Positions 3,910 through 44,764 of a stretch of 64,000 nucleotides of DNA are shown here, in pieces. The DNA is taken from positions 27,503-91,502 of the forward strand of contig CBDDFS010000003.1 in assembly GCA_965227255.1 (NCBI GenBank). The letters run 5' to 3'. Source of the DNA: Vicingaceae bacterium. GTDB taxonomy: Bacteria; Bacteroidota; Bacteroidia; Flavobacteriales_E; Vicingaceae. Under the pieces are notes generated by a model. The model was given only the letters and a program-made list of their open reading frames with translations, was not told where the DNA came from and did not search any database. Made by a program: the position numbers and the translations under genes. Every line of letters begins with the position of its first letter. Positions within the stretch are counted from its first letter, which is position 1.

Positions 3910-3979
3910 AGCTACATTGGGAAGGTTTGCATTGCGATCTCTCCCGCCCTGTTAAAGGCGTCCATATCCAAACCCAGGT

Positions 3980-10350: not shown

Positions 10351-13300
10351 ATGAATTCACTTCGAGCACAGACTTTCTTTCCTCTTAAAGTTCCGTTCTC
10401 ATTTATTCTTTTCTCTATTCTTTTTGTCGTCGCCCTTACAACTCCAAAGATCTCGAAAGCCACCCATGCCATGGGTATGGACCTTACCTATGTCCAGGTA
10501 AGTCAGGACACTTTTATTGTTACCGTGGCATTTTACCGCGATTGTTCTGGAGCTGCAGCTCCTGCCAGCCAGACTCTCAGGGTCAGAAGCCAATCCTGTA
10601 ATGAGAATTTCACGGTTACCTTACCTCGAATAGGACAGGCGGTTGAAACAACACCGGTATGTGCTAGTCTCGTTACGGTTTGTAATAATGGAACATTCCC
10701 TGGGTCGGAAGAATATATCTATCAGGCAACGGTAGTTCTGCCGGATCAATGTTCAGATTGGATATTTAGTACTGACAGATGCTGTAGAAATAACGCCATT
10801 ACAACAATTAACAATCCGGGCAACCAGGAAATCTTCGTTGAAGCGAAGATCAACAACTTCAATTCGAACTCTTCTCCTGTATTCTCAAATCCTCCTGTAC
10901 CATTTGTCTGCGGCAACCAGACTTACTGTTTCAATAATGGAGCCATCGATCAGGAAGGAGACTCTCTTGTTTACAGTTTGATCACACCCAGAACCGGAAC
11001 TGGAGCCAATGATACCATCACATTCCAGGCAGGATATGATAGATTTAATCCTCTTACCTCAAATCCTCCAATCTTTCTGGATTCAGCTACCGGTGACCTT
11101 TGTATGTTCCCGACGGATACAACAGAAATCGCCGTTCTGGCACTTTTAGTGGAAGAATACCGAAATGGAGTTTTCATGGGAAGCATCATGAGAGATATCC
11201 AACTGAGGATCATTGGTTGTCCGAATGGAAATTCAAATCCTGTTCTGAGTGGAATTGACTCAACTACTTCTTTTGTAACGAAAGTCTGTGCTAACACAAA
11301 TTTGAGCTTTGATGTTTTTGTAGATGATCCTGATACCGGACAGGTTGTTACAATGACGTGGAATCAGGCTGTGCAGGGTGCAACATTTAATGTGACCACA
11401 GATGATCGTCCTGTAGGGACTTTTTCATGGACACCTACCATCAACGATGTTCGAGATCAGCCTTATTGCTTTACAGTAACTGTATCAGACGACAACTGTC
11501 CATTCAATGCTCAGCAAACGGCGTCCTATTGTGTATATGTGGTTGGTGTCGCTGCGATCGTTGACTCACTCATCGATCCTTCCTGTTTCGGTTATTGTGA
11601 TGGTCGGGCCATGGCACGCGTTGTAAATGGTATACCTCCTTTTATTTATTCATGGAATGACCCCAGTAATCAGACAAATGCAAGGGCCATAAATTTATGT
11701 GCGGGAACATATACGGTAACCGGTACAGACAGCACAGGTTGTACGACCAGTGTGCCCATTTCACTTTTTGATCCAAAAGAAATTGAGCTGGACTTGGACA
11801 GTGTACCTACCTTATGTAATGGAACAAATGATGGAATGGCCATTGTAAGTTCCGTGGGAATGGGATTCCCGCCTTATTCATATCTCTGGGAAGTGGCTGC
11901 AGGTTCTCAAACTACAGATACAGCCTTCAACTTGGCTATTGGCACATACACAGTTACAGTAACAGATTCAAATGGATGTTTCGTCTCCGACTCTATAACC
12001 GTAACAGAACCAAATCCACTCGCACTGACCGGAAATGTAATTTCCAATGTGAGCTGTAATGCATATAATGATGGTCAGGCCTGGGTTCAGGTTAGTGGTG
12101 GAACAGCACCTTATTCTTATCAATGGGATAGCCTTTCCAATTTCCAGACGACGGATACAGCAAGCAATCTTTTAGCCGGAAACCATACCGTAGTTGTCAC
12201 CGATGTAAATGGCTGTATGGACTCGGTTAGTATCACGATTAACGAGCCGAATTCAGTTATCACACTAAGCTTATCGACAGTAGATATCAATTGTACGGGA
12301 GATAGTACAGGTTCCGCAACGGTGGTAGCATCAGGTGGAACACCACCCTACGCTTATCAATGGAGTGCCAATGCGGGTTCACAAACTACGGCAACAGCAA
12401 CGGGTCTTACAGCCGGAACATATAGTATTATAGTTACTGACCTGAACGACTGCTCGGCTATACCTTTCGTCGTGTTGACCGAACCTGCGAATGCGTTTGT
12501 AATTACACCGGTCGATTCATTTGTTGCTTGTAATGGTTTCACCGATGGAGTGGCGGGAGTTGAAGTTGCGGGAGGAAGTCCACCGTATACTTTCCAATGG
12601 GATGCCAATGCAGGAAATCAAACTACTCAATATGCCTCCAACCTGGGAGCAGGAACTTATTCAGTATTTGTAGATGATTCGCTAGGATGCGGTGACACAG
12701 TTAATGTGCAGGTTCTGGAAGCAGACACACCATTGGTTATTACCGTGGGCAAGGTGGATGTGACCTGCAACAATGGATTTGATGGTCAGGCTTTTGTTTC
12801 TGTGACCGGAGGACTTCAACCTTACACTATTCAATGGGATTCTGCCTCTGGATTTCAAACAGGAGATACGGCAAACAACTTAATGGCTGGAAACTATGCT
12901 GTTAGTATTTCTGATGATTTCGGCTGTGTGGTTGATACATCAGTATTAGTGAACGAGCCTCCACCACTATTGACTTTGACGACCAGTTCCACCAATGTAG
13001 CCTGTTTTGGAGACAGCACAGGTACGGCAACCGTTGTCGTGTCCGGAGGAACTCCACCTTATACATATCAATGGAGTGCAAATGCGGGTGGACAAACAAC
13101 TGATACAGCCTTCGGATTGCCGGCAGGCACTTATTTTGTAACTGCCTTTGACAGCAACAATTGTACCACATCACCGGGAATACTTATAGAAGAGCCTAGC
13201 GATCCGGTTAGGTCAAATATTGTTACTATGGACGCCCTTTGCTTTAACGATAGCAGCGGTATGGCCATTGCTCAGGCTTTTGGTGGAAATCCACCTTATA

Positions 13301-15921
13301 CATATCAATGGGATAGTCTAGCCGGAAATCAAACAACGGATACAGCATTTAATCTTTCAGCCGGAAATTACAATGTGACCGTAACCGATTCACTTGGTTG
13401 TACCTTCGATACCTTAGTTATGGTAAGTCAACCAAACGCACCATTGCAATTAACACTTGCGGCGAATGAAGTGAATTGTTTTGGCGGAACGGATGGTAGA
13501 GCCATTGCCACGGCTGGTGGAGGAACGAGTCCATACAGCATTCAATGGGGTGCACTTTCAAACAATCAGACAGGCGATACAGCATTGAATCTTGTGAGTG
13601 GTTATCATCTGGCGACCTTGAGTGATACCAACATGTGTTCAGTTACCGACAGCATATTTGTAGGTGGACCGGCCGAGCCTGTTGTTGGAGTGATGTCGGC
13701 CGTTGATGCAACTTGTAACGAAAGTTCAGATGGTCTGGCCATTGCAGAGGCAAGTGGTGGTACTGCACCTTACCTTTATGTTTGGGACAGCAGCACCGGA
13801 AATCAGGCCAATGATACAGCATTCAATTTATCAGCAGGAACTTACACTGTGCTGATCACAGATTCTAATAATTGCGATACTACTTTTAGTGTTATTGTGG
13901 GTGAACCATCGAGACTTGAAGATTCAGTATTTGTCTCTTCCAATTTTGGAGGATCTGACATCAAATGTTTTGGTGATTCAACAGGTGAAGCCACTGCACT
14001 GGGTATTGGTGGAACAGCACCTTACACGTATCAATGGGATACAGCGGCTGCAAATCAGACCACGTCCATTGCCACAGGACTAGGTGAAGGTACTTACCAG
14101 GTTGTGATCACCGATACTAATGGATGTATGACCAGTGGTTCTGTAAGTCTCGCAAACCCTCCTAAAGTTGGAGCCACCATTGCTCAGATCAAAAATATCT
14201 CTTGTTATGGTGGTAGTGATGGAAGGATCGAAGTAAATGGATCCGGAGGGACATCACCATATACTTACCTCTGGAATACAGCTCACACAGGAAATGTATT
14301 AGATAGTGTGCCAATTGGAACATATACTGTAACAATTACAGATTCCAATAATTGTGATTTCGACACAACATTTACATTAATTCAGGCCGACAGCATTACC
14401 ATTGATTCATTGATTGAAATAGATGCAGCATGTTTCGGCACTCAAACCGGATCAGCCGGTATATTTATAAGTGGCGGTACCACACCTTACTCCTATTTAT
14501 GGGAAGTTTCTCCTGGCATATTCCAGGTCACACAAACGGCTATCAATCTTGATGCAGGAACTTATCCCGTTCAGGTAACAGACTTTAATGGCTGTTCAAT
14601 ACTTGATACCGCTGAGATCCTTGAACCAGGAGAGGTCTTTGTAAGCGTATCAGACAACGACACCATCTGTGCCAGTCAACCAACGGTGCTAACTGCTTTA
14701 GGGTCGGGTGGTGATTCTGCGTCATACAGATACGTCTGGCTCCCTCCTCAACCTGACAGTAATGCAACGCAAACAGTCATGCCAACGACAACGACAAACT
14801 ATGCGGTGAGAGCAATGGATGCGAGTGGCTGCTTTAGCAACCCCGCCCTTGTTACTGTATTTGTCAGAACAATGGAAAATGACACGATCAACGTTGACGT
14901 TGATGGAGATGTGTGTGCAGGCGATACAGCAATCTTGACAGGTTTCCACAATGGACCGTTCGGAAACTACACCTACACCTGGAACAATGGTTTAACCGGC
15001 TTTGGGCCTCATGAAGTGAGGCCTGATTCGGCTACCGTTTACGTCATGACGGCGAGTGATATATGCGGAAATACTATCTCTGACTCGGTATCTGTAAATG
15101 TTTTTCCAAATCCTGACCTTGGTCTTGACAGCATTATTGCAATCGGTTGTGATCCACTGGCAGTTCAATTTGACGATACCGTGAATACAATGACGAATCT
15201 GACGTATTTATGGCAATTTGGTGATGGAAATGCATCTACTCAGAAAAGTCCTACCTATACTTATCTCACAGCTGGAACATATGATGTAACATTGTCTATC
15301 ACATCTGCGAATTCATGTACGACTACCAATAAGACCAGTCCATCATTGGTTATAGTGCACCCTACTCCTAGCTCAGACTTTAAAGCGGATCCGTTGAGAG
15401 CTGATATGAGAAACCCGGTCATTGATTTCACGGATCAAAGCACAGGGGCCATTTCATATACATGGCAGTTTGGAGATGGAGACACTTCGAAGACTAGGAA
15501 TCCTTCTCATACCTATGGAGACACAGGAAGTTATGTGGTGACCTTGACTTCAATTTCCGATCAGGGATGTGAAAGTCAGAGTCAACGAGAGATTATCATT
15601 GATGCTTATTATTTTATGTCGGTGCCCAATGCCTTTACTCCTTCCACCAGCAATGGCAATGGTGACTGGAGAAATGATCCAGCAGGAAATAAGATCTTCT
15701 ACCCTTACACAACAAATCCTGAAGCAGTTGTGGAATACGAAATGTTGATCTTCAACCGATGGGGTGAATTGATCTTTGAGTCGAAGAATATATTCACCGG
15801 CTGGAATGGATTCTATCGCGACAGAGAGAGTCCTCAGGAAGTGTACGTATATAAGATCAAGGTGCGCTGGGAAAATGGACAGACATTCGAAAAAACAGGT
15901 GACGTTACCCTTTTCAGATGA
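10351..15921 (+). CDS. Giant cell-surface adhesin: 13 SprB-type repeats, 2 PKD domains and a gliding-motility-associated (type B T9SS) C-terminal domain
   Basis: 1856 aa. Repeats of the form C.G..DG.A.V..SGG..PY.Y.W........T....NL.AGTY.V.V.D.NGC. PKD signatures W.FGDG. The C-terminal NAFTP...N.WGELIF...GW.G block is typical of CHU_C/type B sorting domains. Confidence 0.9.
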   Translation: MNSLRAQTFFPLKVPFSFILFSILFVVALTTPKISKATHAMGMDLTYVQVSQDTFIVTVAFYRDCSGAAAPASQTLRVRSQSCNENFTVTLPRIGQAVETTPVCASLVTVCNNGTFPGSEEYIYQATVVLPDQCSDWIFSTDRCCRNNAITTINNPGNQEIFVEAKINNFNSNSSPVFSNPPVPFVCGNQTYCFNNGAIDQEGDSLVYSLITPRTGTGANDTITFQAGYDRFNPLTSNPPIFLDSATGDLCMFPTDTTEIAVLALLVEEYRNGVFMGSIMRDIQLRIIGCPNGNSNPVLSGIDSTTSFVTKVCANTNLSFDVFVDDPDTGQVVTMTWNQAVQGATFNVTTDDRPVGTFSWTPTINDVRDQPYCFTVTVSDDNCPFNAQQTASYCVYVVGVAAIVDSLIDPSCFGYCDGRAMARVVNGIPPFIYSWNDPSNQTNARAINLCAGTYTVTGTDSTGCTTSVPISLFDPKEIELDLDSVPTLCNGTNDGMAIVSSVGMGFPPYSYLWEVAAGSQTTDTAFNLAIGTYTVTVTDSNGCFVSDSITVTEPNPLALTGNVISNVSCNAYNDGQAWVQVSGGTAPYSYQWDSLSNFQTTDTASNLLAGNHTVVVTDVNGCMDSVSITINEPNSVITLSLSTVDINCTGDSTGSATVVASGGTPPYAYQWSANAGSQTTATATGLTAGTYSIIVTDLNDCSAIPFVVLTEPANAFVITPVDSFVACNGFTDGVAGVEVAGGSPPYTFQWDANAGNQTTQYASNLGAGTYSVFVDDSLGCGDTVNVQVLEADTPLVITVGKVDVTCNNGFDGQAFVSVTGGLQPYTIQWDSASGFQTGDTANNLMAGNYAVSISDDFGCVVDTSVLVNEPPPLLTLTTSSTNVACFGDSTGTATVVVSGGTPPYTYQWSANAGGQTTDTAFGLPAGTYFVTAFDSNNCTTSPGILIEEPSDPVRSNIVTMDALCFNDSSGMAIAQAFGGNPPYTYQWDSLAGNQTTDTAFNLSAGNYNVTVTDSLGCTFDTLVMVSQPNAPLQLTLAANEVNCFGGTDGRAIATAGGGTSPYSIQWGALSNNQTGDTALNLVSGYHLATLSDTNMCSVTDSIFVGGPAEPVVGVMSAVDATCNESSDGLAIAEASGGTAPYLYVWDSSTGNQANDTAFNLSAGTYTVLITDSNNCDTTFSVIVGEPSRLEDSVFVSSNFGGSDIKCFGDSTGEATALGIGGTAPYTYQWDTAAANQTTSIATGLGEGTYQVVITDTNGCMTSGSVSLANPPKVGATIAQIKNISCYGGSDGRIEVNGSGGTSPYTYLWNTAHTGNVLDSVPIGTYTVTITDSNNCDFDTTFTLIQADSITIDSLIEIDAACFGTQTGSAGIFISGGTTPYSYLWEVSPGIFQVTQTAINLDAGTYPVQVTDFNGCSILDTAEILEPGEVFVSVSDNDTICASQPTVLTALGSGGDSASYRYVWLPPQPDSNATQTVMPTTTTNYAVRAMDASGCFSNPALVTVFVRTMENDTINVDVDGDVCAGDTAILTGFHNGPFGNYTYTWNNGLTGFGPHEVRPDSATVYVMTASDICGNTISDSVSVNVFPNPDLGLDSIIAIGCDPLAVQFDDTVNTMTNLTYLWQFGDGNASTQKSPTYTYLTAGTYDVTLSITSANSCTTTNKTSPSLVIVHPTPSSDFKADPLRADMRNPVIDFTDQSTGAISYTWQFGDGDTSKTRNPSHTYGDTGSYVVTLTSISDQGCESQSQREIIIDAYYFMSVPNAFTPSTSNGNGDWRNDPAGNKIFYPYTTNPEAVVEYEMLIFNRWGELIFESKNIFTGWNGFYRDRESPQEVYVYKIKVRWENGQTFEKTGDVTLFR
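11560..14630 (+). repeat. Coding tandem array of 13 diverged SprB repeats, about 75-80 aa each
   Basis: Thirteen copies of the GG(T/S)(P/A)PY(T/S)YQW...AGTYTVTVTD.NGC signature were counted in the translation. Confidence 0.85.
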
Positions 15922-30779: not shown

Positions 30780-33700
30780 ATGTATCTGATTTTTGACACC
30801 GAAACGACCGGTTTACCTAAGAATTATAATGCGCCGTTAACGGACTTTGATAACTGGCCTCGAATGGTTCAGTTGGCCTGGCAGTTGCATGATGAGAATG
30901 GGGAATTGATCAGTGTTGAGAACTACATTGTAAAACCAGATGGATACGAAATTCCTTTCAATGCTTCCAAGATCCATGGTATCACTACAGAAAGAGCTGA
31001 GAAACAAGGCCTTGATCTTAAGGAGGTGCTCGATAAGTTTTCAGGAGACCTGGAGAAATGTCAATTCGTTGCCGGACATAACATATCCTTCGATCTTGCC
31101 ATTGTTGGATGTGAATATCTGCGTTGCGAACTTGAGAATAAACTCGAAGGCATCAAGGATCTTGACACCAAAGATGCAGGTACGGAATATTGCGCCATCC
31201 CCGGTGGTAAAGGAGGCGGATATAAATGGCCACGATTGGATGAACTGCATAAAAAGCTTTTCGATGAAGGCTTTGATGAAGCCCATAACGCCGCTGCCGA
31301 TGTTGAGGCGACAACACGCTCCTTCCTTGAAATGATCCGTCTGGGCCTGATCGGTCCCAAAGAAACAGGTCTTGACCCCTCCTACTTTGAGGAATTCAAA
31401 GAAAAGAACCCAAAGCCATTTAAGGCTATAGGATTGAATGTTCAGCCTTATGATCCGGGAGAACTGGAAGAAAGTCAGGAGTCCGAAGAAAAAGGTCAAA
31501 GGTCAGAAGAGACATCACCAAATAACCAAATAACCGAATCACCAGACAATACTCAGGAATCTGGAATCAGGAATCAGGAATCTGAAATCTCAGAAGCTTT
31601 GTCTTCTGAGTATGTCTCCCTACACAACCATACCCAATTCTCAATTCTTCAGGCTACTTGTGAGGTAAACAATCTGATCGATAAAGCCAAAGAATTTGGT
31701 ATGAAGGCCCTTGCTATCACCGACAAGGGAAACATGTTCGGTGCATTCAAATTCCAGCAGGCAGCGAGTAAGGCAGAGATCAAACCCATCATTGGTTGCG
31801 AATTTTACGTTTGTGACGACCATACAAATAAGAGCGTTAAAGATGACGGAAACATGCTGGTTCTGCTTGCAAAGAATCAGAATGGATACCGCAACCTCTG
31901 TAAAATGAGCGCCATTTCTTTCCTCGACGGTTTCTACTATGTTCCGAGGATTGATAAAGATGTTTTATTGGAGTACAAAGAGGATCTCATTGCCTTAAGT
32001 GGCGGACTGAGAGGTGAACCTTCAAGGCTTCTATTGAATCACGGTGAAAAAAGAGCTGAAGAGTCAATTTTGTGGTACAAGGAACACTTCGGGCAAGATT
32101 ACTATCTGGAACTTCTTCGCCATGGTGTTGAAGAAGAAGATGTTTCGAATGAATTTTTTATTCGAATGTCACAAAAACATGACGTGAAAGTCATAGCTCA
32201 GAACAACGTATTTTACGTAACTCCTGACGACGCAAAGGCTCATGATATTCTGCTGTGTGTCAAGGATAATGCCAAACAGAGCACGCCCATAGGTAAAGGA
32301 CGGGACAAGAGATATGGCTTTCCAAATAATGAATTCTCTTTTAAGTCACCTGCCGAGATGTCGGAGCTTTTCAAGGATATCCCGGAGAGCATCAGCAACA
32401 TCACAGAGATTGTTGACAAGGTTGAAGAATATCAATTGAAAAGAGATGTTCTGCTTCCTGCCTTTGAAATTCCGGATGAATTTGAAACGGAAGATGATTA
32501 TCTGAAGCATTTGACCTACGAAGGTGCAAAGCAACGATATGAGGAAATCACTCCTGAGATCAAGGAAAGACTTGATTTTGAGCTGGAAACGATCAAGAAT
32601 ACCGGTTATCCCGGTTACTTCCTGATCGTGCAGGATTTCACCTCTGAAGCGCGAAAAATGGGCGTAAGTGTGGGGCCCGGCCGGGGGTCGGCAGCCGGGT
32701 CGGCTGTGGCTTATTGCATTGGAATCACAAATGTTGACCCCATCAAGTATGACCTGCTTTTCGAGCGTTTTCTCAATCCCGACAGGATATCCCTTCCTGA
32801 TATTGATATTGACTTCGATGATGAAGGACGAGGAAAGGTCATTGACTTCGTTGTGGAGAAATACGGCAAGAATCAGGTGGCTCAGATCATCACCTATGGA
32901 TCCATGGCTGCCAAATCAGCGCTTCGGGATACGGCTAGAGTACTTGAGCTTCCGTTAAGCGAAGCCGATCAATTAGCCAAGATGATGCCAGATACCAAAC
33001 TGAAGAAAATGTTTGGTATGGAAGACAAGGCGTTGAAAGAAAAACTGGGTGCTGAGCAGTTCGAAAGAGCTCAGCAAATGAAAGAAATTGCGAAAGGTAA
33101 CGACCTGCAGGCCAATACGATAAATCAAGCTACCGTACTTGAAGGTTCACTTAGAAATACAGGCACGCATGCTTGTGGTGTGATCATCACTCCGACGGAT
33201 ATGACGGAACTGATTCCGGTGGCCTCGGCCAAAGATGCCGACCTGATGGTTACTCAATATGACAACAGTGTCATTGAATCGGCAGGGATGCTGAAAATGG
33301 ACTTCCTGGGACTTAAAACCCTATCCATTATCAATCATGCTATTCGTCTCATTAAAGAAAAACACGGTGTTGAAATTGATGTAGATGAGATTCCTTTGGA
33401 TGACACCAAGACCTACGAGCTATACCAACGGGGTGAAACGAACGGAACCTTCCAGTTTGAGTCGCCTGGTATGCAGAAGCATCTGAAGGCGCTTAAACCT
33501 GATAAATTCGCCGATCTAATTGCCATGAATGCCTTGTACAGGCCAGGACCAATGGAGTATATTCCAAACTTCATTGCAAGAAAACAAGGTCGTGAGGAGA
33601 TCACTTACGATATCGATGATATGGAGGAATACCTGGCAGAAACCTATGGTATTACTGTGTATCAGGAGCAGGTGATGCTATTATCCCAAAAGTTGGCAGG

Positions 33701-35105
33701 TTTTACCAAGGGTGAAGCTGACGTTCTGCGAAAGGCCATGGGTAAGAAGATCTTCGCCCTACTGGATCAACTCAAGCCTAAGTTTCTTGAAGGGTGTGAG
33801 AAGAACGGTCATGACAAAGTGGTTGCCGAGAAGGTCTGGAAAGACTGGGAAGCCTTTGCCGCCTATGCCTTCAATAAATCGCATTCTACTTGCTACAGCG
33901 TCATTGCATTCCATACTGCTTACCTTAAAGCTAACTATCCGGCTGAATACATGGCCTCTGTGTTGACCAACAACATGAATGATATTAGCAAAGTGGCTTT
34001 CTTTATGGAAGAATGTAAGCGACTGAATATTCCCGTATTGAGTCCGGATGTAAATGAAAGTCATATTCACTTTACAGTGAACAATGAGGGAGCAATTCGT
34101 TTCGGGTTAGGGGCTGTAAAAGGAGTTGGTGAAGCGGCTGTTGAAATCATGATTCAGGAAAGAAATCAAGGCGGAGCCTTTACTTCACTCTTTGATCTGG
34201 TGCAGAGAGTAGATCTTCGTTCGGTGAATAAAAGGACGCTGGAAAGTTTGGCCATGGCCGGTGCTTTTGATGGTTTCGATAATGCACACAGGGCACAGTA
34301 CTTTGCGACCGACGAACTGGGCAGAACGGGCATTGAATTGGCAGTCAAGTTTGCAAATGCTGTCAAACAGTCAGAGAATTCCAGCCAAATAAACATGTTT
34401 GGAGAGGAAAGCAGTTACGAAGTGACAGAACCTGAATTGCCCAAAACAGAAGAATGGGGTACCATGGAATTTCTTTCCAAAGAAAAAGAAGTTGTTGGTG
34501 TATATATTTCAGGGCACCCGCTAGATGACTATAGATTGGAGATAGAGAATTTCACCAATGCCAATCTGACCTTCCTGAATCAGGTCGACTATTTCAAAGG
34601 AAGGGAGATGAAGTTTGCAGCCACAGTCACAGGATCCAGGCATGGAATGACAAAAAGAGGAAAACCATTTGGAGTGCTTACACTCGAGGATTACTCAGAG
34701 AGTCAGGAGATTTTCCTATTTGGAGAAGACTATGTTAATTTCAAGAACTACATGGTCGTGGGCTGGCATTTGTATGTTCATGGCAAAGTGATGGAGCATA
34801 AATTCAAGGAAAATGAATGGGAATTCAAGATTGCCAAAATCGAGTTACTCAGTGACCTTAGAGACAAAATGGCACGAAGCATTACCTTAAATGTTCCAGA
34901 AACCACTGTAAATGAAGATTTTGTGCAGAAAATTGGTGAGATCAGTGACAAACATAAAGGCAAGGTTCAGCTTGTGTTGAAGCTCCTCGATAAAAAGGAG
35001 AAACAAGTGGTGGAACTGCGCTCCAGAAGCAAGAAAGTGAATATAACAGATGAATTCCTTGAGGAATTATCAGGACTTAAGGAAGTCAATTATACAATCA
35101 ATTAA
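30780..35105 (+). CDS. dnaE: DNA polymerase III alpha subunit (DnaE, PHP + pol + OB) with a fused N-terminal DnaQ-like DEDDh 3'-5' exonuclease domain
   Basis: 1441 aa. Exo motifs are FDTETTG (ExoI), GHNISFD (ExoII) and HNAAADV (ExoIII) in aa 1-190. A low-complexity linker spans aa about 225-275. The PHP start is VSLHNHTQFS, followed by canonical DnaE blocks (GPGRGSAAGS, PDIDIDF, LKMDFLGL, FNKSHS). Confidence 0.9.
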   Translation: MYLIFDTETTGLPKNYNAPLTDFDNWPRMVQLAWQLHDENGELISVENYIVKPDGYEIPFNASKIHGITTERAEKQGLDLKEVLDKFSGDLEKCQFVAGHNISFDLAIVGCEYLRCELENKLEGIKDLDTKDAGTEYCAIPGGKGGGYKWPRLDELHKKLFDEGFDEAHNAAADVEATTRSFLEMIRLGLIGPKETGLDPSYFEEFKEKNPKPFKAIGLNVQPYDPGELEESQESEEKGQRSEETSPNNQITESPDNTQESGIRNQESEISEALSSEYVSLHNHTQFSILQATCEVNNLIDKAKEFGMKALAITDKGNMFGAFKFQQAASKAEIKPIIGCEFYVCDDHTNKSVKDDGNMLVLLAKNQNGYRNLCKMSAISFLDGFYYVPRIDKDVLLEYKEDLIALSGGLRGEPSRLLLNHGEKRAEESILWYKEHFGQDYYLELLRHGVEEEDVSNEFFIRMSQKHDVKVIAQNNVFYVTPDDAKAHDILLCVKDNAKQSTPIGKGRDKRYGFPNNEFSFKSPAEMSELFKDIPESISNITEIVDKVEEYQLKRDVLLPAFEIPDEFETEDDYLKHLTYEGAKQRYEEITPEIKERLDFELETIKNTGYPGYFLIVQDFTSEARKMGVSVGPGRGSAAGSAVAYCIGITNVDPIKYDLLFERFLNPDRISLPDIDIDFDDEGRGKVIDFVVEKYGKNQVAQIITYGSMAAKSALRDTARVLELPLSEADQLAKMMPDTKLKKMFGMEDKALKEKLGAEQFERAQQMKEIAKGNDLQANTINQATVLEGSLRNTGTHACGVIITPTDMTELIPVASAKDADLMVTQYDNSVIESAGMLKMDFLGLKTLSIINHAIRLIKEKHGVEIDVDEIPLDDTKTYELYQRGETNGTFQFESPGMQKHLKALKPDKFADLIAMNALYRPGPMEYIPNFIARKQGREEITYDIDDMEEYLAETYGITVYQEQVMLLSQKLAGFTKGEADVLRKAMGKKIFALLDQLKPKFLEGCEKNGHDKVVAEKVWKDWEAFAAYAFNKSHSTCYSVIAFHTAYLKANYPAEYMASVLTNNMNDISKVAFFMEECKRLNIPVLSPDVNESHIHFTVNNEGAIRFGLGAVKGVGEAAVEIMIQERNQGGAFTSLFDLVQRVDLRSVNKRTLESLAMAGAFDGFDNAHRAQYFATDELGRTGIELAVKFANAVKQSENSSQINMFGEESSYEVTEPELPKTEEWGTMEFLSKEKEVVGVYISGHPLDDYRLEIENFTNANLTFLNQVDYFKGREMKFAATVTGSRHGMTKRGKPFGVLTLEDYSESQEIFLFGEDYVNFKNYMVVGWHLYVHGKVMEHKFKENEWEFKIAKIELLSDLRDKMARSITLNVPETTVNEDFVQKIGEISDKHKGKVQLVLKLLDKKEKQVVELRSRSKKVNITDEFLEELSGLKEVNYTIN
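31517..31589 (+). repeat. Octamer x4 then heptamer x5 array inside the dnaE exonuclease-PHP linker
   Basis: Octamers are accaaata accaaata accgaatc accagaca (31517-31548). Heptamers are aggaatc tggaatc aggaatc aggaatc tgaaatc (31555-31589). Together they encode NNQITESPDNTQESGIRNQESEIS. Confidence 0.8.
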
Positions 35106-38195: not shown

Positions 38196-40721
38196 ATGGA
38201 CAATAACAACAAAAACGCAAAAACATTAAACATCATCGGCGTTGCAGCCAGCATATTGAGTTTCGCACTATATCTGATACTTAGAAATAAAACCGAAATA
38301 AGAAGAGGTGACTTTTTTGATGAAGGAGGAGTCTTTCTGATCAATTATATGATCACCATCATATACTCCATCACCGTTATAAGCAACAATACCATCAAGA
38401 ACAGATTCTGGCAATTATCCATGATCGACAGACGACAGATCATGTATATGGTCACGCTTTTCTCAATCTCTGCCTTCACCTTGAATCTTTCTATCCCAAT
38501 TTTCAATCGATTTACAGCATGGCTGGATACTTATCTTCTCATCATGTTCCTTCCTCTGTTCATCCTGGGACATTCAAAAACACCTCAATTCCTGAAATAC
38601 ATTGCATATTTCCTCATGGGACTAGGAACGGTGATGTCACTTTATTTTGCCATTTACCTCCTGCCCATGTTTGTTGTCATGATCATAGGCGCCATATTTT
38701 TCGGTCTCGGTTTGCACTTGATTGCCCCTCACCTACTATTACTGACTTATATCGTGCAATTCAGAAAAGAAAAATCGGGCAGGACGGGTCTGGTTTTATA
38801 CCTCTCCGGTATAATTCTTCCACTTATAGTCTTCTCCTTTTACATGAATAAATGGCATGATGCCAAAATGAATTTGCACAAGGCCAGTGCCAGCATCATT
38901 ACTCAAGCAAATTCCACTCTTCCCACCTGGGTCATTCTCAGTCAGAATTTGAGCTCTGATCCTTTTTCTGAAAAGATCATCATGGGAGAACTTCGATACG
39001 ACACACCACAAAGACATTGGGATTCTTTCGGATTTCCTTCGAATTCATTCAGTGAAATCAAGGAACATGACCCCATGGTCTTTATGTCAATGGCCTTTCT
39101 TGGTGACTTACCTATAGATAGAAACGACAGGATTAAGGTTTTGGAATCAAAATTCGACTCACGTCATCTGTCTTATCGTAAATTCTGGACGGGTCGAGAC
39201 CTGAGCACAACAGAAGTGCTTACCAACCTTGATGTATTTCCTGATTACAGAATGGCCTACCTCGAAAAATACATTACCATTCAGAATCACAATTCCTGGG
39301 CCCAAAATCAACAGGAAGCACTGTATACATTTTATCTTCCGGAAGGATCAGTTGCAACTTCCTTGTCGCTATGGATCAACGGAAGAGAGGAAAAATCAAG
39401 ATTAACGACCAGGCAAAAAGCGGATAGCGCTTATAGTGAAATCGTTGGTAGACAGAGACGTGATCCTGCTTTATTACACTGGCAGGAAGGTAATCGAATC
39501 ACTGTCACTGTGTTTCCATGCACTCCAGCTGAAAACAGAAGATTCAGAGTCGGATTCACCATGCCTCTTGAAAAACGAGGTGATGAATTAATTCTCAAGA
39601 ATGTGAATTTCAAAGGACCCTGGAATAATTCTTCCCTCGAAACCACGGCTATTAGGATTCACAGTCAAAATGGAGCAAAATTCCTTGATCTCCCTTCCGT
39701 TTTTGAACAAACAGGAACCAATGAATATCAGTATACCGGCAGTTACCGGTCGTATTGGGAATTGCGCATATCTGACGAGGGGCTGTCAAAAAATCAGTTC
39801 TCCTTCAATGGCAAGAGTTTTAGTGTAAAAGACCACGAACCTGAAAATGAGATATTCAAAGCTGAGAAGATTTACCTTGATATCAATAAGAGTTGGTCAA
39901 AAGGGGATATAGAAGATGTATTGGAAATTATTGGCGACAGGCCATTTTACGTCGTTGATGTTGAACCCGCTAAGGTTACAGAAGAAAATAGAGAATACTT
40001 AATCGAACAAGGACTCGATAAAGAGTTTAGTCTCTTTCCAATTCATCTTATCGATGATCCGCGAAAAAGCCTGATCATTTCAAAGTCTTCTCACTTAAGT
40101 CCAAACCTCAGAGATCTAAAAGAATCTGTTTTTGGAGATAGTTTGAAATCGTATCTGGAAGGAATGCCTGAATCCATTCCATTTTATAACATAGACAACC
40201 AGGTTTCTCCTTATATAGCCTCTCTGAGAGAATTTGGCATATTTCACTTCTCTTCAGGATCAATAGACGAATTGAGGGATCTGATTTCCAAGAATGAATT
40301 CCCCGAATTCAGTCGAGATACCAATCGAATTGTAATACATGAGTCCGATATGGAGATCATCATGAATAAGGGTGAGGTTAAATCCAAGGCCCCCGATCAT
40401 GTGATGCGGCTCTTTGCCTACAATCAGATCAATCATCTGATGGGTGCTCATTACTTTGAATCGGATGAATACGTTACCGGTGAGTTGATTGATCTGGCGA
40501 ATGAAGCCTTTGTGGTCTCTCCGATCTCAAGTCTGGTCGTACTAGAAACACTTCAGGATTATGAAAGATTTGGAATCGAAGAAAATGAGAACAGCCTTCA
40601 GAATGCAGCCTCTGGCTCTTCCGGAGCTGTCCCTGAACCCCATGAATGGGCGCTGATCATATTGATAGGGCTAACACTCCTATATCTGACCTACAAAAGA
40701 AGAATGAACACATTGAATTGA
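38196..40721 (+). CDS. XrtN-system VIT-domain protein: N-terminal polytopic membrane region, VIT domain and C-terminal PEP-CTERM sorting signal
   Basis: 841 aa. About 7 TM helices in aa 1-230. VIT-like block YTFYLPEGSVATSLSLWINGREEKSRL...RRFRVGF. The C-terminus is VPEP + HEWALIILIGLTLLYLTY + KRR. Confidence 0.8.
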   Translation: MDNNNKNAKTLNIIGVAASILSFALYLILRNKTEIRRGDFFDEGGVFLINYMITIIYSITVISNNTIKNRFWQLSMIDRRQIMYMVTLFSISAFTLNLSIPIFNRFTAWLDTYLLIMFLPLFILGHSKTPQFLKYIAYFLMGLGTVMSLYFAIYLLPMFVVMIIGAIFFGLGLHLIAPHLLLLTYIVQFRKEKSGRTGLVLYLSGIILPLIVFSFYMNKWHDAKMNLHKASASIITQANSTLPTWVILSQNLSSDPFSEKIIMGELRYDTPQRHWDSFGFPSNSFSEIKEHDPMVFMSMAFLGDLPIDRNDRIKVLESKFDSRHLSYRKFWTGRDLSTTEVLTNLDVFPDYRMAYLEKYITIQNHNSWAQNQQEALYTFYLPEGSVATSLSLWINGREEKSRLTTRQKADSAYSEIVGRQRRDPALLHWQEGNRITVTVFPCTPAENRRFRVGFTMPLEKRGDELILKNVNFKGPWNNSSLETTAIRIHSQNGAKFLDLPSVFEQTGTNEYQYTGSYRSYWELRISDEGLSKNQFSFNGKSFSVKDHEPENEIFKAEKIYLDINKSWSKGDIEDVLEIIGDRPFYVVDVEPAKVTEENREYLIEQGLDKEFSLFPIHLIDDPRKSLIISKSSHLSPNLRDLKESVFGDSLKSYLEGMPESIPFYNIDNQVSPYIASLREFGIFHFSSGSIDELRDLISKNEFPEFSRDTNRIVIHESDMEIIMNKGEVKSKAPDHVMRLFAYNQINHLMGAHYFESDEYVTGELIDLANEAFVVSPISSLVVLETLQDYERFGIEENENSLQNAASGSSGAVPEPHEWALIILIGLTLLYLTYKRRMNTLN

Positions 40722-40726
40722 GATCA

Positions 40727-42139
40727 ATGATGAAAATGAACCTTTCAAAAAGGCAATTGATAACGACAGGTTTCCTGCTGCTGGCCACACTGGTTAGCAT
40801 GCAGAACCTGTATTTTTATTTGAAATTCGATTTTCAATTCTTCATTATTGCTCTTTCCTGCCCCTTCGTTCTCTATGTAAAGGAGAGGAACGTATTTTCC
40901 CTCAGGTATGCCTTTCTCTCGCTCCTCTGCCTGGCGGTATATCCCATGATAAAGGTGCAGTCGCTTTTTTTCCTTGGATACATGTTCTTCCTTTTATTCA
41001 TTATTGAGAGCAACCTGGGAAAGGTGAATAATCTTCCTTTTTACCTGATCATTCTCTTATCCCCTTTTTCGGGCTTTGTATTTCAGCAACTGGGATTTCC
41101 CATACGACTTGAATTGACCTCTATTTCGGCTTCCATACTTCAGAGTATGAGCATGGATGCAAGTGCAGTTGGAAATATCCTTTACCTGAATGATCAAGCC
41201 TTCTCGGTAGATCCGGAATGCATGGGACTTAAGATGGTGAGCACATCGTTTATCATTACGCTTCTGTTCCTGGCTCATTTTGAACGCAGATCAAAAACAT
41301 CCTTGTCATTTTCTGTGATCATGTTGGTTTTTGCCTGGACCTCCATCCTCGTAATTCTCAGCAATCTGAGTCGAATCCTCTTGCTTGTTCTCTTCTCATC
41401 AGACCCGGGCTCTTTATCACATGAATTGATCGGAATCATATGTTTGATCTCATACCTAATTCTTCCTAACTACTATATGATTCGGTTGATTTTCAGGAAA
41501 TATGGCAAAACTAAAACTGTTGTGATTCCTTCACCAAAGAGCTTTTCTAAAAAATATGCCTGGCTGATTTTGCCCGGACTAATGGTTCTGCTTTATCTCA
41601 ATCAGAATCGTGTTGAATATAGGAATATCGAAAAGGACCCCATGGCTGAACAGATTGAACTAGATGGTTTTCAAAAAGACACGGTAAAAGGAAATGTTAT
41701 GCAGTTCGTCAATGATACAAGCATGATTTACATAAAACCATCAAGTAAATTCTACGGAGCTGATCACACACCCTTGATATGCTGGAAAGGCAGTGGTTAT
41801 AAATTCGATCACGAAAAAATAGATGTTGTAAATGGCAAGGAAGTCTATATGGCCCATTTAAAGTCGGAGGAAAATGACACACTTTATACCGCATGGTGGT
41901 ACGACAACGGTCCAACGAAAACCATACGTCAACTCGACTGGAGATGGAGAATGATAAAAGGCGAGAATGATTTCCGCCTGGTCAATGTCACCTGCACTAC
42001 TCAGTCGATATTGAATCAGGAGGTGGAGAAACTATTAGAGATGAACCTGTTTGAAGAAATACAAGATGTACAAATTGATATAACGGGCAATATAAGATCT
42101 GAAAAGGGCAATATCATTTCAATTGGTCTTCAGCCTTGA
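40727..42139 (+). CDS. xrtN: Exosortase (XrtN-like) fused to a C-terminal EpsI-like domain
   Basis: ATG at 40727, 5 nt after the upstream stop. Polytopic. The exosortase catalytic-type motifs are DPECMGLKM (Cys), LSNLSRILLL (Arg) and SHELIGI (His). The C-terminal soluble domain carries ADHTPLICWKGSGY (EpsI-like H.P..C..G.G). Confidence 0.75.
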   Translation: MMKMNLSKRQLITTGFLLLATLVSMQNLYFYLKFDFQFFIIALSCPFVLYVKERNVFSLRYAFLSLLCLAVYPMIKVQSLFFLGYMFFLLFIIESNLGKVNNLPFYLIILLSPFSGFVFQQLGFPIRLELTSISASILQSMSMDASAVGNILYLNDQAFSVDPECMGLKMVSTSFIITLLFLAHFERRSKTSLSFSVIMLVFAWTSILVILSNLSRILLLVLFSSDPGSLSHELIGIICLISYLILPNYYMIRLIFRKYGKTKTVVIPSPKSFSKKYAWLILPGLMVLLYLNQNRVEYRNIEKDPMAEQIELDGFQKDTVKGNVMQFVNDTSMIYIKPSSKFYGADHTPLICWKGSGYKFDHEKIDVVNGKEVYMAHLKSEENDTLYTAWWYDNGPTKTIRQLDWRWRMIKGENDFRLVNVTCTTQSILNQEVEKLLEMNLFEEIQDVQIDITGNIRSEKGNIISIGLQP

Positions 42140-42753
42140 TTAAAACGCCTTTGAAGTTTCTTCTCGAACCTGTACAGATTTCTACTTTGCATTAATTTCT
42201 CACTTTTTGGAGGGGAAGTTCTTTTTGCCAACCAATTAGAGTAGGCGTCCTCAGACAGAATTCTCGCGTAGATTTTGTGTCTTAGCTTGACTTTATTGCC
42301 TCTGTTTTTCGTGATGTTACCTCTCACTTTGTCTCCATCAATAAAAAGAAAACTCTCTGAACACAGACCCATGACCAGCAATCGGTTGAAATAAGACGAG
42401 TCCACTCTGTATTCAAATGCATTCCATTCATTCAGCAAGGAGCCTGTCAATATATATTCTCTCCCTTCGTCTCTATATGGAACACTTTTAAAACATTCAA
42501 AACCCTTGTCGTTGAGCAGATAGAGAGTATCCTCGTTGAATTCACCCTTTAATACCGTGCTAACCCTAAACAAGGTAACGGTGTATGCATAGCGCGAAGT
42601 ATCAAGGGCTTTTATACCAATAACCTCAGCACGGACAACCAATTCGCCTATTGAATTCATGAATTTATCGGGTCCAATACATGAGCAGGATAAGGCTCTC
42701 AGAGAAGCTAAGAAGACAAATGCAGCGAAGAAAATGTATTTAATGCTTTTCAT
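42130..42753 (-). CDS. Secreted TIMP/NTR-like domain protein (mature N-terminus CSC)
   Basis: 207 aa. The signal peptide is followed by CSCIGPDKFMNSIGELVVRAEVIG. Cysteines fall at mature positions 1, 3, 65 and 109. The EYILTGSL block parallels TIMP EYLIAGK. Confidence 0.65.
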   Translation of the reverse strand: MKSIKYIFFAAFVFLASLRALSCSCIGPDKFMNSIGELVVRAEVIGIKALDTSRYAYTVTLFRVSTVLKGEFNEDTLYLLNDKGFECFKSVPYRDEGREYILTGSLLNEWNAFEYRVDSSYFNRLLVMGLCSESFLFIDGDKVRGNITKNRGNKVKLRHKIYARILSEDAYSNWLAKRTSPPKSEKLMQSRNLYRFEKKLQRRFNQG

Positions 42754-43712
42754 TTTAACTCTTCCAATCTATAGCTAAAAGGCAATATGGTAAAGCAAGA
42801 GAAATTCTTGCCATAATTATTTCTGGCCGGCTGCCAGTTGGGCATTTTATACGTTTTCTTGACTGCCAGACTATCGAGCACTGGATGAACTCCTCTGAGA
42901 ACCGACACATCCTCAACACGACCTGAATCAGTGATAGTAAATCGCACGATAACTTTTCCTTCTATGCCATGTTCAGTCAGCGGGTTTTCGTTATTCACCA
43001 GATATTCTCTCATTTCTTCATCAGTGAAAGGCGGTTCAGGCTCAAAACCGGTCAAGGCGCATGCCTGAATTTCTCCATCTTCCTCAGGCCTTTCAGATTC
43101 AAACTCAATTTCTACCGGCTCCTCTACATCTCCGTCGATGCAGCATCTGCCCTTTTCCTCAAAGGCACTTACCATGATGTTTTTCTCTGCCAATTGCTTG
43201 AGTCTGATTGAATCCAGTCTGGGAATGTATTCGTATTTGTCTTCGTCCCACGCATAAGCTCTTTCGAATTCCCTGATAGTCGCATTCATAGTTTCCCTTT
43301 CTTTACCCTGAGGTGGAACAAAGCTCAGACCGCAGAAGCTGTCATCTACACTGAGATTACCAAAATGATAGACCGACTTTATTGATTGTGTACTTCCAAA
43401 ATTCAGCCTCCACCCTTTTTCCTTTTTGATCAGGTAGAAACGACTTCGTTTATAATACATGTAATCGACTTCAAACCCGCATCCGTCATGTTCTCTTGGT
43501 AAATTGATCTGATCTCCCTTTTTCAATCCATAACCCTTGTCAATGATGGCTTTATTCACAATAATGTAAAACTGGTCTTTATCCTGGCTTTTCACAGTTG
43601 CATCCAAAACCAGATCTGCACTGAATAAATTGCGCAGTTCGGGTATGTACTCTTCGTCAGCGAAGACTTGTCCGAACAGCATTGCAAAAGAAATCAGCAG
43701 AGTAATTCTCAC
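42750..43712 (-). CDS. Secreted protein with a degenerate TIMP/NTR-like N-terminal half and a TonB C-terminal (TonB_C) domain
   Basis: 320 aa. The C-terminal block GIEGKVIVRFTITDSGRVEDVSVLRGVHPVLDSLAVK......W.PA is typical of TonB_C. 4-nt overlap with the downstream gene. Confidence 0.7.
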   Translation of the reverse strand: MRITLLISFAMLFGQVFADEEYIPELRNLFSADLVLDATVKSQDKDQFYIIVNKAIIDKGYGLKKGDQINLPREHDGCGFEVDYMYYKRSRFYLIKKEKGWRLNFGSTQSIKSVYHFGNLSVDDSFCGLSFVPPQGKERETMNATIREFERAYAWDEDKYEYIPRLDSIRLKQLAEKNIMVSAFEEKGRCCIDGDVEEPVEIEFESERPEEDGEIQACALTGFEPEPPFTDEEMREYLVNNENPLTEHGIEGKVIVRFTITDSGRVEDVSVLRGVHPVLDSLAVKKTYKMPNWQPARNNYGKNFSCFTILPFSYRLEELK

Positions 43713-43819
43713 AGTGCAAGATTAAGTTTTTTCATTCTCCACATTGACTATAAATGATGAACGGTAAAATAGTCACGAAATTTCCCATTCCAAGATCTCA
43801 CATCAATATATCCTCTCAG

Positions 43820-43854
43820 ATCATAGATCATGAATCATAGTTCATAGATCATAG
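43820..43854. repeat. Heptanucleotide array, 5 units (ATCATAG)
   Basis: Units are atcatag atcatga atcatag ttcatag atcatag, in a divergent spacer. Confidence 0.85.
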
Positions 43855-43885
43855 ATCTTTTGGTATTTTGGCCAAAAAATAAAGC

Positions 43886-44764
43886 ATGCGAATTCTCACC
43901 TCTCTCCTACTAATTTGTGCCTTTGTATCCACTCAGTCACAAAACGAAAAAGAACTTAAAAAAATGACCAAAGGTTTCGATAAAACCGAAGGTGGTCTTT
44001 ACTACAAAATCACACCGGCCGCCGAACAGGGAAGAAAGGTTGAGTTACAGGATATAGTTACAGTAGATATTAAATACGGTACGAAGGACACGACATTATT
44101 TGACTCCAAAAGCATACAAACACCGGCAGAATTGATGGTTGGAGAACCAGTTTATAAATCCGATATCATGGAAGGGTTTATCATGCTGCATGAAGGTGAT
44201 GAAGCCGTTTTTATCACTTCGGCCGATTCTTTCTTCACCAAAGCAGGTGGTATTGGAATTCCTCCGGGAATCAACAAAACGGATTATCTGGTATTTGAAG
44301 TCAAAGTCAATAAGTCGAGATCCATCGATGAATTAAGGGCTGAAAAAGCGGCTTTGGCAGAGGAGCAAAAGGCAGCCGAAGCAAAGAAGATTGCAGAATA
44401 TATGACAAAATATTATCCAGGTGTAAGCGCCACCCCGTCTGGTCTATATTATGTTGAAACCAATGCAGGCAAAGGAAGACAGGCAGAAAATGGATTGACG
44501 GTCAAAGTACATTATACGGGCACACTTCTTACTGGAGAGACCTTTGATTCATCCTGGGAAAGAAATCAACCCATAGAATTTAAATTGGGTGCCGGCCGAG
44601 TTATTAGAGGCTGGGAAGAAGGTATCGCCCGCATGCGAGAAGGAACTACGGCCACCTTCATTATCCCATCAAACTTGGCTTATGGTGGCAATCCTCCTCC
44701 AGGAAGCATTATTCAAGCCTATTCTCCTCTCAGGTTTGACGTTGAGTTGATAGAAGTTAGATAG
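43886..44764 (+). CDS. FKBP-type peptidyl-prolyl cis-trans isomerase (two-domain, secreted)
   Basis: 292 aa. The C-terminal FKBP block is V.VHYTGTLL.G..FDSS.....P..F.LG.G.VI.GW.EG...M..G. Confidence 0.88.
   Translation: MRILTSLLLICAFVSTQSQNEKELKKMTKGFDKTEGGLYYKITPAAEQGRKVELQDIVTVDIKYGTKDTTLFDSKSIQTPAELMVGEPVYKSDIMEGFIMLHEGDEAVFITSADSFFTKAGGIGIPPGINKTDYLVFEVKVNKSRSIDELRAEKAALAEEQKAAEAKKIAEYMTKYYPGVSATPSGLYYVETNAGKGRQAENGLTVKVHYTGTLLTGETFDSSWERNQPIEFKLGAGRVIRGWEEGIARMREGTTATFIIPSNLAYGGNPPPGSIIQAYSPLRFDVELIEVR

Follow-up and report, generated by a model that had tools for sequence, protein, structure and literature searches.

A flavobacterial protein with a TIMP-like N-terminus and a predicted TIMP/NTR fold, encoded together with a TonB_C protein

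Introduction

Does a bacterium make a protein built like animal TIMPs (tissue inhibitors of metalloproteinases), and if it does, could that protein work in the same way? The question is raised by two overlapping genes, here called A and B, in DNA from a Vicingaceae bacterium of the Bacteroidota (assembly GCA_965227255.1, contig CBDDFS010000003.1, positions 27,503 to 91,502 of the forward strand). The whole 64,000-nucleotide stretch that was analysed is called the window, and positions are counted from its first letter. An original prediction, made from the letters of the window, had proposed that A is an exported TIMP-like protein and that B is its paralogue with a TonB_C domain. Both open reading frames (ORFs) and their four-nucleotide overlap, which reads ATGA, were reproduced at the same coordinates. 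Our answer to the first part of the question is that A is very probably an exported, cysteine-stapled protein of TIMP/NTR fold with a TIMP-like N-terminus; the second part calls for a more guarded answer. The features on which the argument relies are as follows, all on the minus strand.

42130-42753, minus: gene A, ORF of 207 amino acids (aa) with an ATG start; stop codon at 42130-42132
42750-43712, minus: gene B, ORF of 320 aa with a GTG start; exported-type protein
42750-42753, minus: ATGA in the coding-strand sequence, the stop of B (TGA) and the start of A (ATG) sharing 4 nucleotides
42688-42753, minus: signal peptide of A, aa 1-22, ending LRALS before the Cys (family-wide -3/-1 statistics; helix 2-19 in the structure model)
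42679-42687, minus: codons of Cys23-Ser24-Cys25, the mature Cys1-Ser2-Cys3 (family columns; hhalign alignment to TIMP Cys1-X-Cys3)
42304-42687, minus: NTR/OB-barrel domain of A, aa 23-150, with Cys87, Cys131 and the NDKGFEC and V.GNITKN motifs (structure model, Foldseek, hhalign, family columns)
42133-42303, minus: basic helical C-terminal tail of A, aa 151-207, isoelectric point (pI) 11.1, standing where the TIMP C-domain would (model helices, charge analysis)
42753-42977, minus: TonB_C domain of B, aa 248-316 (Pfam PF03544, E = 1.2e-9; TIGR01352, E = 7.9e-8)
43143-43658, minus: N-terminal region of B, without CxC; possible but unproven OB/NTR-like barrel (weak hhalign matches)

Fold of protein A and its relation to TIMPs

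Protein A (MKSIKYIFFAAFVFLASLRALS before cleavage and CSCIGPDKFMNSIGELVVRAEVIG after, the mature chain starting CSCIGPDKF) has four cysteines in total. They are residues 23, 25, 87 and 131, or 1, 3, 65 and 109 of the mature protein, the positions given by the original prediction. As a single query A has no match in Pfam, in NCBIfam or, by phmmer, among PDB sequences. A word-indexed search returned five close relatives at 40-54% identity, and a HMMER search of 1.84 billion cluster representatives returned 57 clusters of the A family at E <= 1e-3, about 50 of them full-length (~200 aa). A further profile-based search for homologues yielded only 2 more proteins. The family statistics, the alignment and the second AlphaFold2 (AF2) run are based on 49 aligned members.

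With the 49-sequence alignment the AF2 model of A has a predicted local distance difference test score (pLDDT) of 92.4 and a predicted TM-score (pTM) of 0.84, all five models being above 90. A first run with 6 sequences reached a pLDDT of 62 and was not trusted, although its fold class was the same TIMP/NTR one. The strands of the model are at 38-49, 58-69, 76-80, 99-106 and 125-129, followed by a hairpin (135-139 and 142-145), and its helices are at 2-19 (the signal peptide), 151-165, 168-177 and 193-206. This amounts to the module of ~130-150 residues, an OB barrel with flanking helices, by which the NTR superfamily is recognized.

When the model was compared to the PDB with Foldseek, the top 18 matches were all TIMP-1, -2 or -3, agrin NtA or the NTR modules of complement C3/C4, at probabilities of 0.97-1.00. 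The best were TIMP-2 (2e2d_C, E = 4.4e-4) and N-TIMP-1 (3ma2_C, TM-score 0.58, root-mean-square deviation 3.2 A over 109 columns), with 1br9 (TIMP-2) and 1d2b (N-TIMP-1) among the other top TIMP structures. The NTR domains of PCOLCE and meteorin came next in the ranking; ribosomal proteins, single-stranded DNA-binding protein and other OB folds of a generic kind came below these. A search against viral structures returned generic OB folds and nothing specific. The fold check on which the original prediction depended therefore came out with TIMP/NTR structures on top.

The sequence link is seen when profiles are compared. The template for hhalign was a hand-made alignment of human N-TIMP-1 to -4, of which the TIMP-2 sequence is 100% identical to 1br9_A; the TIMP-2 N-terminus quoted in the original prediction is also correct against that chain. 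The A family matches this template with a probability of 78-88% and E = 3e-6 to 2e-5 (best 87.8%, E = 3.3e-6), and the alignment starts at Cys1. It pairs the following segments.

A CSC with TIMP CTC
A VVRAEV with TIMP VIRAKF
A LKGE with TIMP YKGF
A Cys65 with TIMP Cys70
A REYILTG with TIMP EEFLIAG

The score of 37.4 compares to 12.0 +/- 2.0 (maximum 17.6) for 40 column-shuffled TIMP controls and 15.5 for the reversed alignment, and the pairing reproduces the correspondence of blocks that had been proposed by eye. The proposed parallel of the cysteines is reproduced in part: Cys1, Cys3 and Cys65 are aligned with TIMP Cys1, Cys3 and Cys70, but beyond strand D, at an insertion of ~20 residues in A, the match trails off, so that the equivalence of Cys109 with TIMP Cys99 comes from strand order only.

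One could argue that this likeness is convergent, or that of any OB fold, and has no functional meaning. There is no TIMP/NTR match in Pfam, sequence identity is 15-20%, the Foldseek E-values are 4e-4 to 1e-2 with TM-scores <= 0.58, and the hhalign template is a single hand-made alignment of 4 sequences and not a calibrated database. We nevertheless consider convergence improbable, since the top 18 structural matches belong exclusively to the NTR superfamily while generic OB folds are lower in rank and probability, the hhalign score is ~12 standard deviations over the shuffled controls in an alignment that starts exactly at Cys1, and 3 of the 4 cysteines coincide with TIMP disulfide cysteines.

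The mature N-terminus and the conserved cysteines

By sequence rules, the signal peptide ends directly at Cys-X-Cys, with residues of the signal peptidase I type at -3 and -1, in 48 of the 49 members. The motif is CSC in 36 members, with CQC, CTC, CDC and others making up the remainder. Ser (36 members) or Thr (2 members) thus occupies mature position 2 in 38/48, as in TIMP-1 to -4. Column conservation is 48/49 for C23 and C87 and 49/49 for C25, C131 and G145. The expectation that the CxC motif, Cys65 and Cys109 would be kept in homologues thus holds family-wide.

Two general patterns are relevant to the cleavage site, the (-3,-1) rule of signal peptidase I and the lipobox L-[ASTVI]-[GAS]-C. 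Position -1 is A in 26 members, S in 16 and G in 5 (47/48 A/S/G). Position -3 is A in 14, S in 8, L in 8, V in 5, I in 4 and G in 4, 18/48 being not small, and position -2 holds bulky or charged residues (Y, K, F, L, W, N). The original prediction had named lipid modification of the Cys as a danger to its proposal, because a Cys1 lipidated by way of signal peptidase II would have no free amine and the TIMP mechanism would be impossible. Formally, a lipobox would allow for a Cys that follows a signal peptide with A, S or G at -1; LSAC, IAAC or VLSC stands there in a few members; and both the potempins, which are bacterial OB-fold inhibitors, and the TIMP-like protein Tim of Listeria are lipoproteins (PMC9890683, PMC8235301). 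In the A family, however, -3 is small (A, S, G, T) in 28/48 where the lipobox favours L, and -2 is Y, K, F, W or N in 29/48, which is atypical of a lipobox; the window protein itself reads A-L-S before Cys1. The residues at -3, -2 and -1 of A appear to fit the signal peptidase I pattern, with no lipobox. In addition, with Cys1 lipidated the number of remaining conserved cysteines would be odd (three), whereas four fit two disulfides, an arrangement that would be incompatible with a lipidated Cys1. We therefore regard a lipoprotein as very improbable.

The lone exception to the cleavage-site pattern, member P0034, has lost both Cys1 (to Ser) and Cys65 (to Tyr), and this joint loss fits a Cys1-Cys65 disulfide. 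A subgroup (P0037, P0041, P0054, P0063 and P0071) has jointly gained a further pair of cysteines, of which the V.G hairpin and the C-terminal Q.M strand hold one each, and this agrees with the packing of the tail onto the barrel that the model suggests. The tail is basic across the family, with a net charge >= +4 in 43/49 members and a mean of +9.

Distribution and annotation of the A family

Members of the family carry only the name "hypothetical protein" in the databases, and a single member of the 49 has a Pfam match to NtA, at noise level (E = 0.017). The relatives with genomic context come from metagenome-assembled genomes (MAGs) of Flavobacteriales and from assembled metagenomes, of which some bear the label seawater; a locus search with the alignment of close relatives returned two Flavobacteriales MAGs only. 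Genes of the type IX secretion system (T9SS) and Gld genes are present on loci of the family. Most members carry no taxonomy, and from these contexts the family appears to be centred in the Bacteroidota.

Apart from the cysteines, the most conserved motif of the family is LxLCxEN.L.V.g.kViGNItKN (profile 127-155, about 125-152 of A). It matches 2ox7 locally, and this was the sole match when the PDB was searched with the family profile (E = 0.28). The entry 2ox7 is a 155-aa 'hypothetical protein' (EFLDLVFCQSNILYRDGYLVIGNIHENPE) and is not among the top Foldseek matches for A.

Protein B and the B-A pair

Protein B is composed of a signal-peptide-like segment (aa 1-18), a family-specific region (~19-190), an acidic linker (~190-245, pI 4.05) and the TonB_C domain (248-316). 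The TonB_C assignment made earlier is borne out by Pfam at E = 1.2e-9, and the only solved relatives are TonB C-terminal domains in the PDB (E = 1e-3). Of the traits of a TonB transducer B has TonB_C only, the linker being acidic and not Pro-rich, and a globular N-terminal region replacing the spacer. We also considered B as a protease or other enzyme and rejected this; there is no invariant His, and the cysteine of its GCG motif is absent from the divergent copy in locus L001, which makes an enzymatic role unlikely.

The original prediction saw the strand pattern of A in the N-terminal half of B as well. Eight close relatives of B were found by protein search and five further loci in metagenomes. 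Against N-TIMP, hhalign gave B a score of 18.3 with the 8-sequence alignment of B and 23.3-23.9 (probability 8-15%) with the enlarged ones, a score reached by 1/100 shuffles; over all alignments the probability was 1-15%. Against the A family the score was 15-16 (E = 0.02-0.2, probability 0.3-2%), which 0/60 shuffles reached. The alignments of B, TIMP and A are statistically weak but share one register, and they return the blocks named in the original prediction, as follows.

B ADLVLDA, TIMP SDLVIRA (no segment given for A)
B GCGF, TIMP VCGY, A FECF
B RFYLIKK, TIMP EFLIAGK, A EYILTGS

Enlarging the B alignment with the metagenome loci left the similarity to TIMPs and to the A family not significant. 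What stands of the earlier claim is that the blocks fall in a consistent register, and what does not is statistical significance. The N-terminal domain of B may be a paralogue of A, and we treat this as an unproven lead rather than as a result.

The ATGA overlap suggests that translation of A may be coupled to that of B. In all, 19 loci were fetched, some of them redundant or too short to inform, which leaves 14 distinct contexts besides the window. The arrangements are as follows.

B followed by A: window, L001, L002, L004-L006, L007, L010, L013
B without A: L009; L012
Distant A homologues without B: L003, L008, L014, L017, L018

The coding regions of B and A overlap or abut in L001, L002, L004, L010 and L013. 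Altogether the pair is found in 7 distinct loci whose neighbours are otherwise unrelated, and it is abutting or overlapping where both genes are intact. In L012 the intact B is followed, again with an ATGA overlap, by a 62-aa ORF (1747-1935) that has an A-like signal peptide and no CSC. It looks like a decayed gene A, which implies that B can persist without A. In L001 an extra 211-aa gene (3737-4372) lies directly upstream of B and encodes the N-terminal region of B without TonB_C (HMM E = 2e-25), making a three-gene array in that genome. The gene pair proposed earlier is therefore conserved among the close relatives of A, but the distant homologues of A are unpaired.

Neighbouring genes and candidate proteases

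A homologues without B stand in varied company. In L018 (1282-4867) the homologue is the last of an apparent operon after genes for a GDSL/SGNH hydrolase and an MBOAT acyltransferase, and it abuts the latter gene, the two sharing one base at their boundary. In L014 (4466-9112), in another apparent operon, it has a HerA-like ATPase before it and a TonB-dependent receptor with DUF4249 after it. A fragment of a TonB-dependent transporter (TBDT) and a DtxR-like regulator lie upstream of the homologue in L008, and a ChaN-like haem-binding gene lies near the B-A pair in L004-L006.

These neighbours bear on another reading, that of a metal-binding or redox role for A, in which its CxC and two distal cysteines would be free thiols that coordinate a metal, acting together with TonB-dependent uptake. 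The four conserved cysteines, the TonB_C domain of the partner, the receptor directly downstream in L014, the TBDT fragment and regulator in L008 and the haem-binding gene in L004-L006 would all suit it. TBDTs are, however, very numerous in Bacteroidota, so that their adjacency is weak evidence. The predicted fold is a disulfide-stapled TIMP/NTR barrel in which 3 of the 4 cysteines align with TIMP disulfide cysteines, the joint loss of Cys1 and Cys65 in P0034 fits a disulfide pair, and the A family matched no metal-binding family in the Pfam scans. We would give this reading only a small chance.

The original prediction pointed to secreted metallopeptidases in the window. Neither of the two genes it named encodes a canonical metzincin. 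The product of 8461-10230 is an aminopeptidase of the M28 type that carries a T9SS sorting domain. The gene at 49107-50537 (minus) encodes a 476-aa exported protein that contains HELGHIIGHLGH and is the sole ORF of the window with HExxH, 6.4 kb from A. Its HExxH is followed by Gly, with further His residues at motif positions 9 and 12. We rejected it as a metzincin on a pattern scan, because its third His is not at position 11 of HExxHxxGxxH. It has no family match in Pfam, NCBIfam or the PDB, and it may belong to an undescribed zincin family. Across the fetched loci the only other ORF with HExxH is the housekeeping M50 protease RseP in L002. The link between A and the metallopeptidases of the window is weak, given that they lie 6 and 32 kb off, are not canonical metzincins, and that no protease is conserved beside A. 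Across the loci examined, a cognate protease target of A is without genomic evidence.

Proposed mechanism

In the mechanism that we propose, A would be exported by the Sec pathway and cut by signal peptidase I right before Cys-Ser-Cys, which would give Cys1 a free alpha-amino group. The mature protein would be a TIMP/NTR-type OB barrel (aa 23-150) in which putative Cys1-Cys65 and Cys3-Cys109 disulfides, equivalent to Cys1-Cys70 and Cys3-Cys99 of TIMP, tie the N-terminal segment to the barrel, and onto which the basic helical tail would pack back. A zinc metallopeptidase of the envelope could then take up the rigid N-terminal ridge in its active-site cleft, where the amino and carbonyl groups of Cys1 would chelate the zinc while Ser2 points into the S1' pocket. 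Protein B, whose translation may be coupled to that of A, would probably partner or localise A in the periplasm, for example at an outer-membrane protein bearing a TonB box. By analogy to TIMPs, that A acts as an inhibitor of an envelope zinc metallopeptidase, in this subfamily together with B, is a tentative reading, in which we place a little less than even confidence.

Several observations weigh against it. None of the 49 members falls credibly in any Pfam family, with PF00965 and PF01759 unmatched at E <= 1, and the TM-scores of the Foldseek matches are moderate (0.34-0.58 on the target). The third N-domain disulfide of TIMPs and their C-domain are absent from A. Many NTR modules, among them NtA, C345C and the NTR of PCOLCE, do not inhibit proteases. 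The lipobox-like LSAC or IAAC precedes Cys1 in a few members of the A family. Among the 14 other distinct contexts no protease is conserved beside A, and the contexts of unpaired A genes are heterogeneous, including PKD/T9SS proteins, a DtxR-like regulator, a HerA-like ATPase, a helix-turn-helix protein and the GDSL and MBOAT genes.

Some of this would also be explained if A were a non-inhibitory, NTR-like binding module, with the CxC disulfides stapling the fold, the barrel and basic tail binding a protein or an anionic polymer of the envelope, and B serving as partner or anchor. Non-inhibitory NTR modules reach similar Foldseek scores (NtA 1pxu at 1.2e-3, then C4, C3, meteorin and PCOLCE), the tail is basic across the A family (mean +9) where the linker of B is acidic (pI 4.05), and the lack of a genomically linked protease and the mixed gene contexts are in keeping with such a role. 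This is the main rival to the inhibitor, metal binding, lipidation and convergence being less likely, and yet we think it unlikely for two reasons. The position of CxC exactly at the cleavage site in 48/49 members and the Ser/Thr that mostly follows as residue 2 are TIMP-specific features; to our knowledge, non-inhibitory NTR modules of this kind are internal or C-terminal and are without CxC at a signal-peptide cleavage site. Additionally, the profile of A matches TIMPs (the profile comparison was made with TIMPs alone), while the Pfam match to NtA is at noise level and in 1/49 members.

Surroundings of the pair in the window

The genes and regions that flank the pair are the following.

43713-43885, no strand assigned: intergenic stretch 5' of B, divergent with the FKBP gene; presumed promoter region (ORF map of the window)
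43886-44764, divergent from B: FKBP isomerase gene (Pfam/NCBIfam scans)
40646-42139, plus: XrtN exosortase gene (TIGR04476, E = 2e-104)
38196-40721, plus: VIT-domain substrate of XrtN (TIGR04477, E = 3e-264)

Upstream of B, between it and the FKBP gene, there is a 7-bp tandem repeat (AGATCAT, 5.7 copies, 81% matches) at 43818-43857, which may be an array for binding a regulator or a slippage-prone tract. A scan of this region for sigma-70 promoters was set aside, as the sigma-70 consensus is uninformative for Bacteroidota. A short ORF, ATGAAAAAACTTAATCTTGCACTGTGA (MKKLNLAL and stop), lies at 43709-43735 on the minus strand, its stop overlapping the GTG start of B as GTGA. The peptide looks like the n-region of a signal peptide, and the ORF could be a coupling upstream ORF, the frameshifted original start of B, or a coincidence.

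On the other side there is a complete XrtN exosortase system (38196-42139, plus), convergent with gene A and overlapping its 3' end by 10 bp. A functional tie of A to this system was rejected, as no exosortase genes lie beside A in the fetched loci with sufficient flanking DNA. Since exosortase, VIT substrate and FKBP do not recur beside the homologues, the B-A pair appears to be an independent module.

Further away, the window encodes a 1856-aa SprB-repeat/PKD protein whose type IX secretion signal is CHU_C (10351-15921, plus). Together with several proteins with Por_Secre_tail, it indicates the genome of a gliding, T9SS-bearing member of the Bacteroidota. At 30780-35105 (plus) there is a DNA polymerase III alpha subunit in which an N-terminal exonuclease domain of the RNase_T type (aa 3-180) is fused to the PHP domain and polymerase core.

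Significance

Some bacterial proteins may already be tagged by the "TIMP-like OB-fold" assignments of InterPro. The reviews that we found treat TIMPs, and NTR modules with them, as having arisen in animals, calling TIMPs an "ancient eukaryotic protein family" (PMC4860685) and "expressed in all Metazoa" (PMC9409782), and neither of these discusses bacterial homologues; the only report of a bacterial TIMP-like protein that we found is that of Listeria Tim (PMC8235301). Here a diverse and unannotated family keeps the feature that defines the TIMP mechanism, Cys-X-Cys exactly at the signal-peptide cut, along with the fold and the pattern of cysteines.

A bolder reading is that A is a genuine bacterial TIMP, one of an ancient set of periplasmic inhibitors of the Bacteroidota that act by N-terminal zinc chelation, are homologous to the TIMP/NTR proteins of animals, and in one lineage are docked by an NTR-like, CxC-less TonB_C partner. 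This we hold to be doubtful. If it were true, it would imply either that the NTR module arose in prokaryotes or that it was transferred between domains of life long ago, and A with its TonB_C partner would be a new module for the control of proteases in the envelope. With the A family, the question of where the NTR/TIMP module arose can be put to a direct test, and a new class of candidate metalloprotease inhibitors would follow, useful as scaffolds because they have a single domain and two disulfides. The family also points to unexplored protease control in the cell envelope of Bacteroidota, possibly tied to docking of the TonB type.

Comparison with known systems

The closest known proteins in fold are the animal TIMPs (MEROPS I35, Pfam PF00965). 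Protein A shares with them the predicted cleavage directly before Cys-(Ser/Thr)-Cys, the predicted OB/NTR barrel, the order of the blocks VIRAK, YKG, C-G and EYLIAG, a fourth cysteine after the next-but-one strand, as TIMP Cys99, and a site of variable-length insertion between the first two strands, like the AB loop of TIMPs. It differs in being bacterial (Flavobacteriales), with 15-20% identity, no Pfam match and a genomic pairing with a TonB_C protein. It has neither the Cys13-Cys124 disulfide nor the six-cysteine (three-disulfide) C-domain, and ahead of its basic helical tail it carries ~20 additional residues and one more hairpin (V.GNITKN). As defined by sequence models, the A family is outside TIMP/I35. 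The other NTR modules (agrin NtA, C345C of complement C3/C4/C5, PCOLCE, meteorin) are of the same fold class, with Foldseek E = 1e-3 to 2e-2.

Among bacterial proteins, Tim of Listeria monocytogenes (LMRG_00714) is a lipoprotein with a predicted TIMP-like fold, paired with the metzincin Mtz, whose gene lies directly upstream (PMC8235301). Its lipobox is LTAC, and its TIMP-like part is exposed only after Mtz removes ~50 residues; its authors found that no TIMP-like protein of a bacterium had been described before (PMC8235301). Protein A shares with Tim the predicted bacterial TIMP-like fold, but it is without a lipobox, unmasking of the Mtz type or a metzincin neighbour, and no sequence match between the two was seen. 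The potempins PotA, PotC and PotD of Tannerella forsythia are five-stranded OB-fold peptidase inhibitors, of which PotA acts on enzymes of the matrix metalloproteinase type; they are lipoproteins of the outer membrane whose genes lie immediately upstream of those for the peptidases they target, and they inhibit by way of loops between strands 4 and 5 and not by the N-terminus (PMC9890683). Potempins and A are both OB barrels of Bacteroidota, but A has no lipobox pattern and no adjacent peptidase gene, and the potempins are not among its top 50 Foldseek matches.

Protein B shares TonB_C with TonB. It is without the Pro-rich spacer, and its other parts are a signal peptide that looks cleavable, ~170 aa of unique sequence and an acidic linker, so that it is not a canonical energy transducer.

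For the proposed mechanism of A, the nearest functional precedent in bacteria is that of the serralysin inhibitors APRin, Inh and SmaPI (MEROPS I38). These are eight-stranded barrels without CxC, encoded in the operon of the protease, and they act in the periplasm, where their N-terminal residues enter the cleft of a metzincin and approach its zinc.

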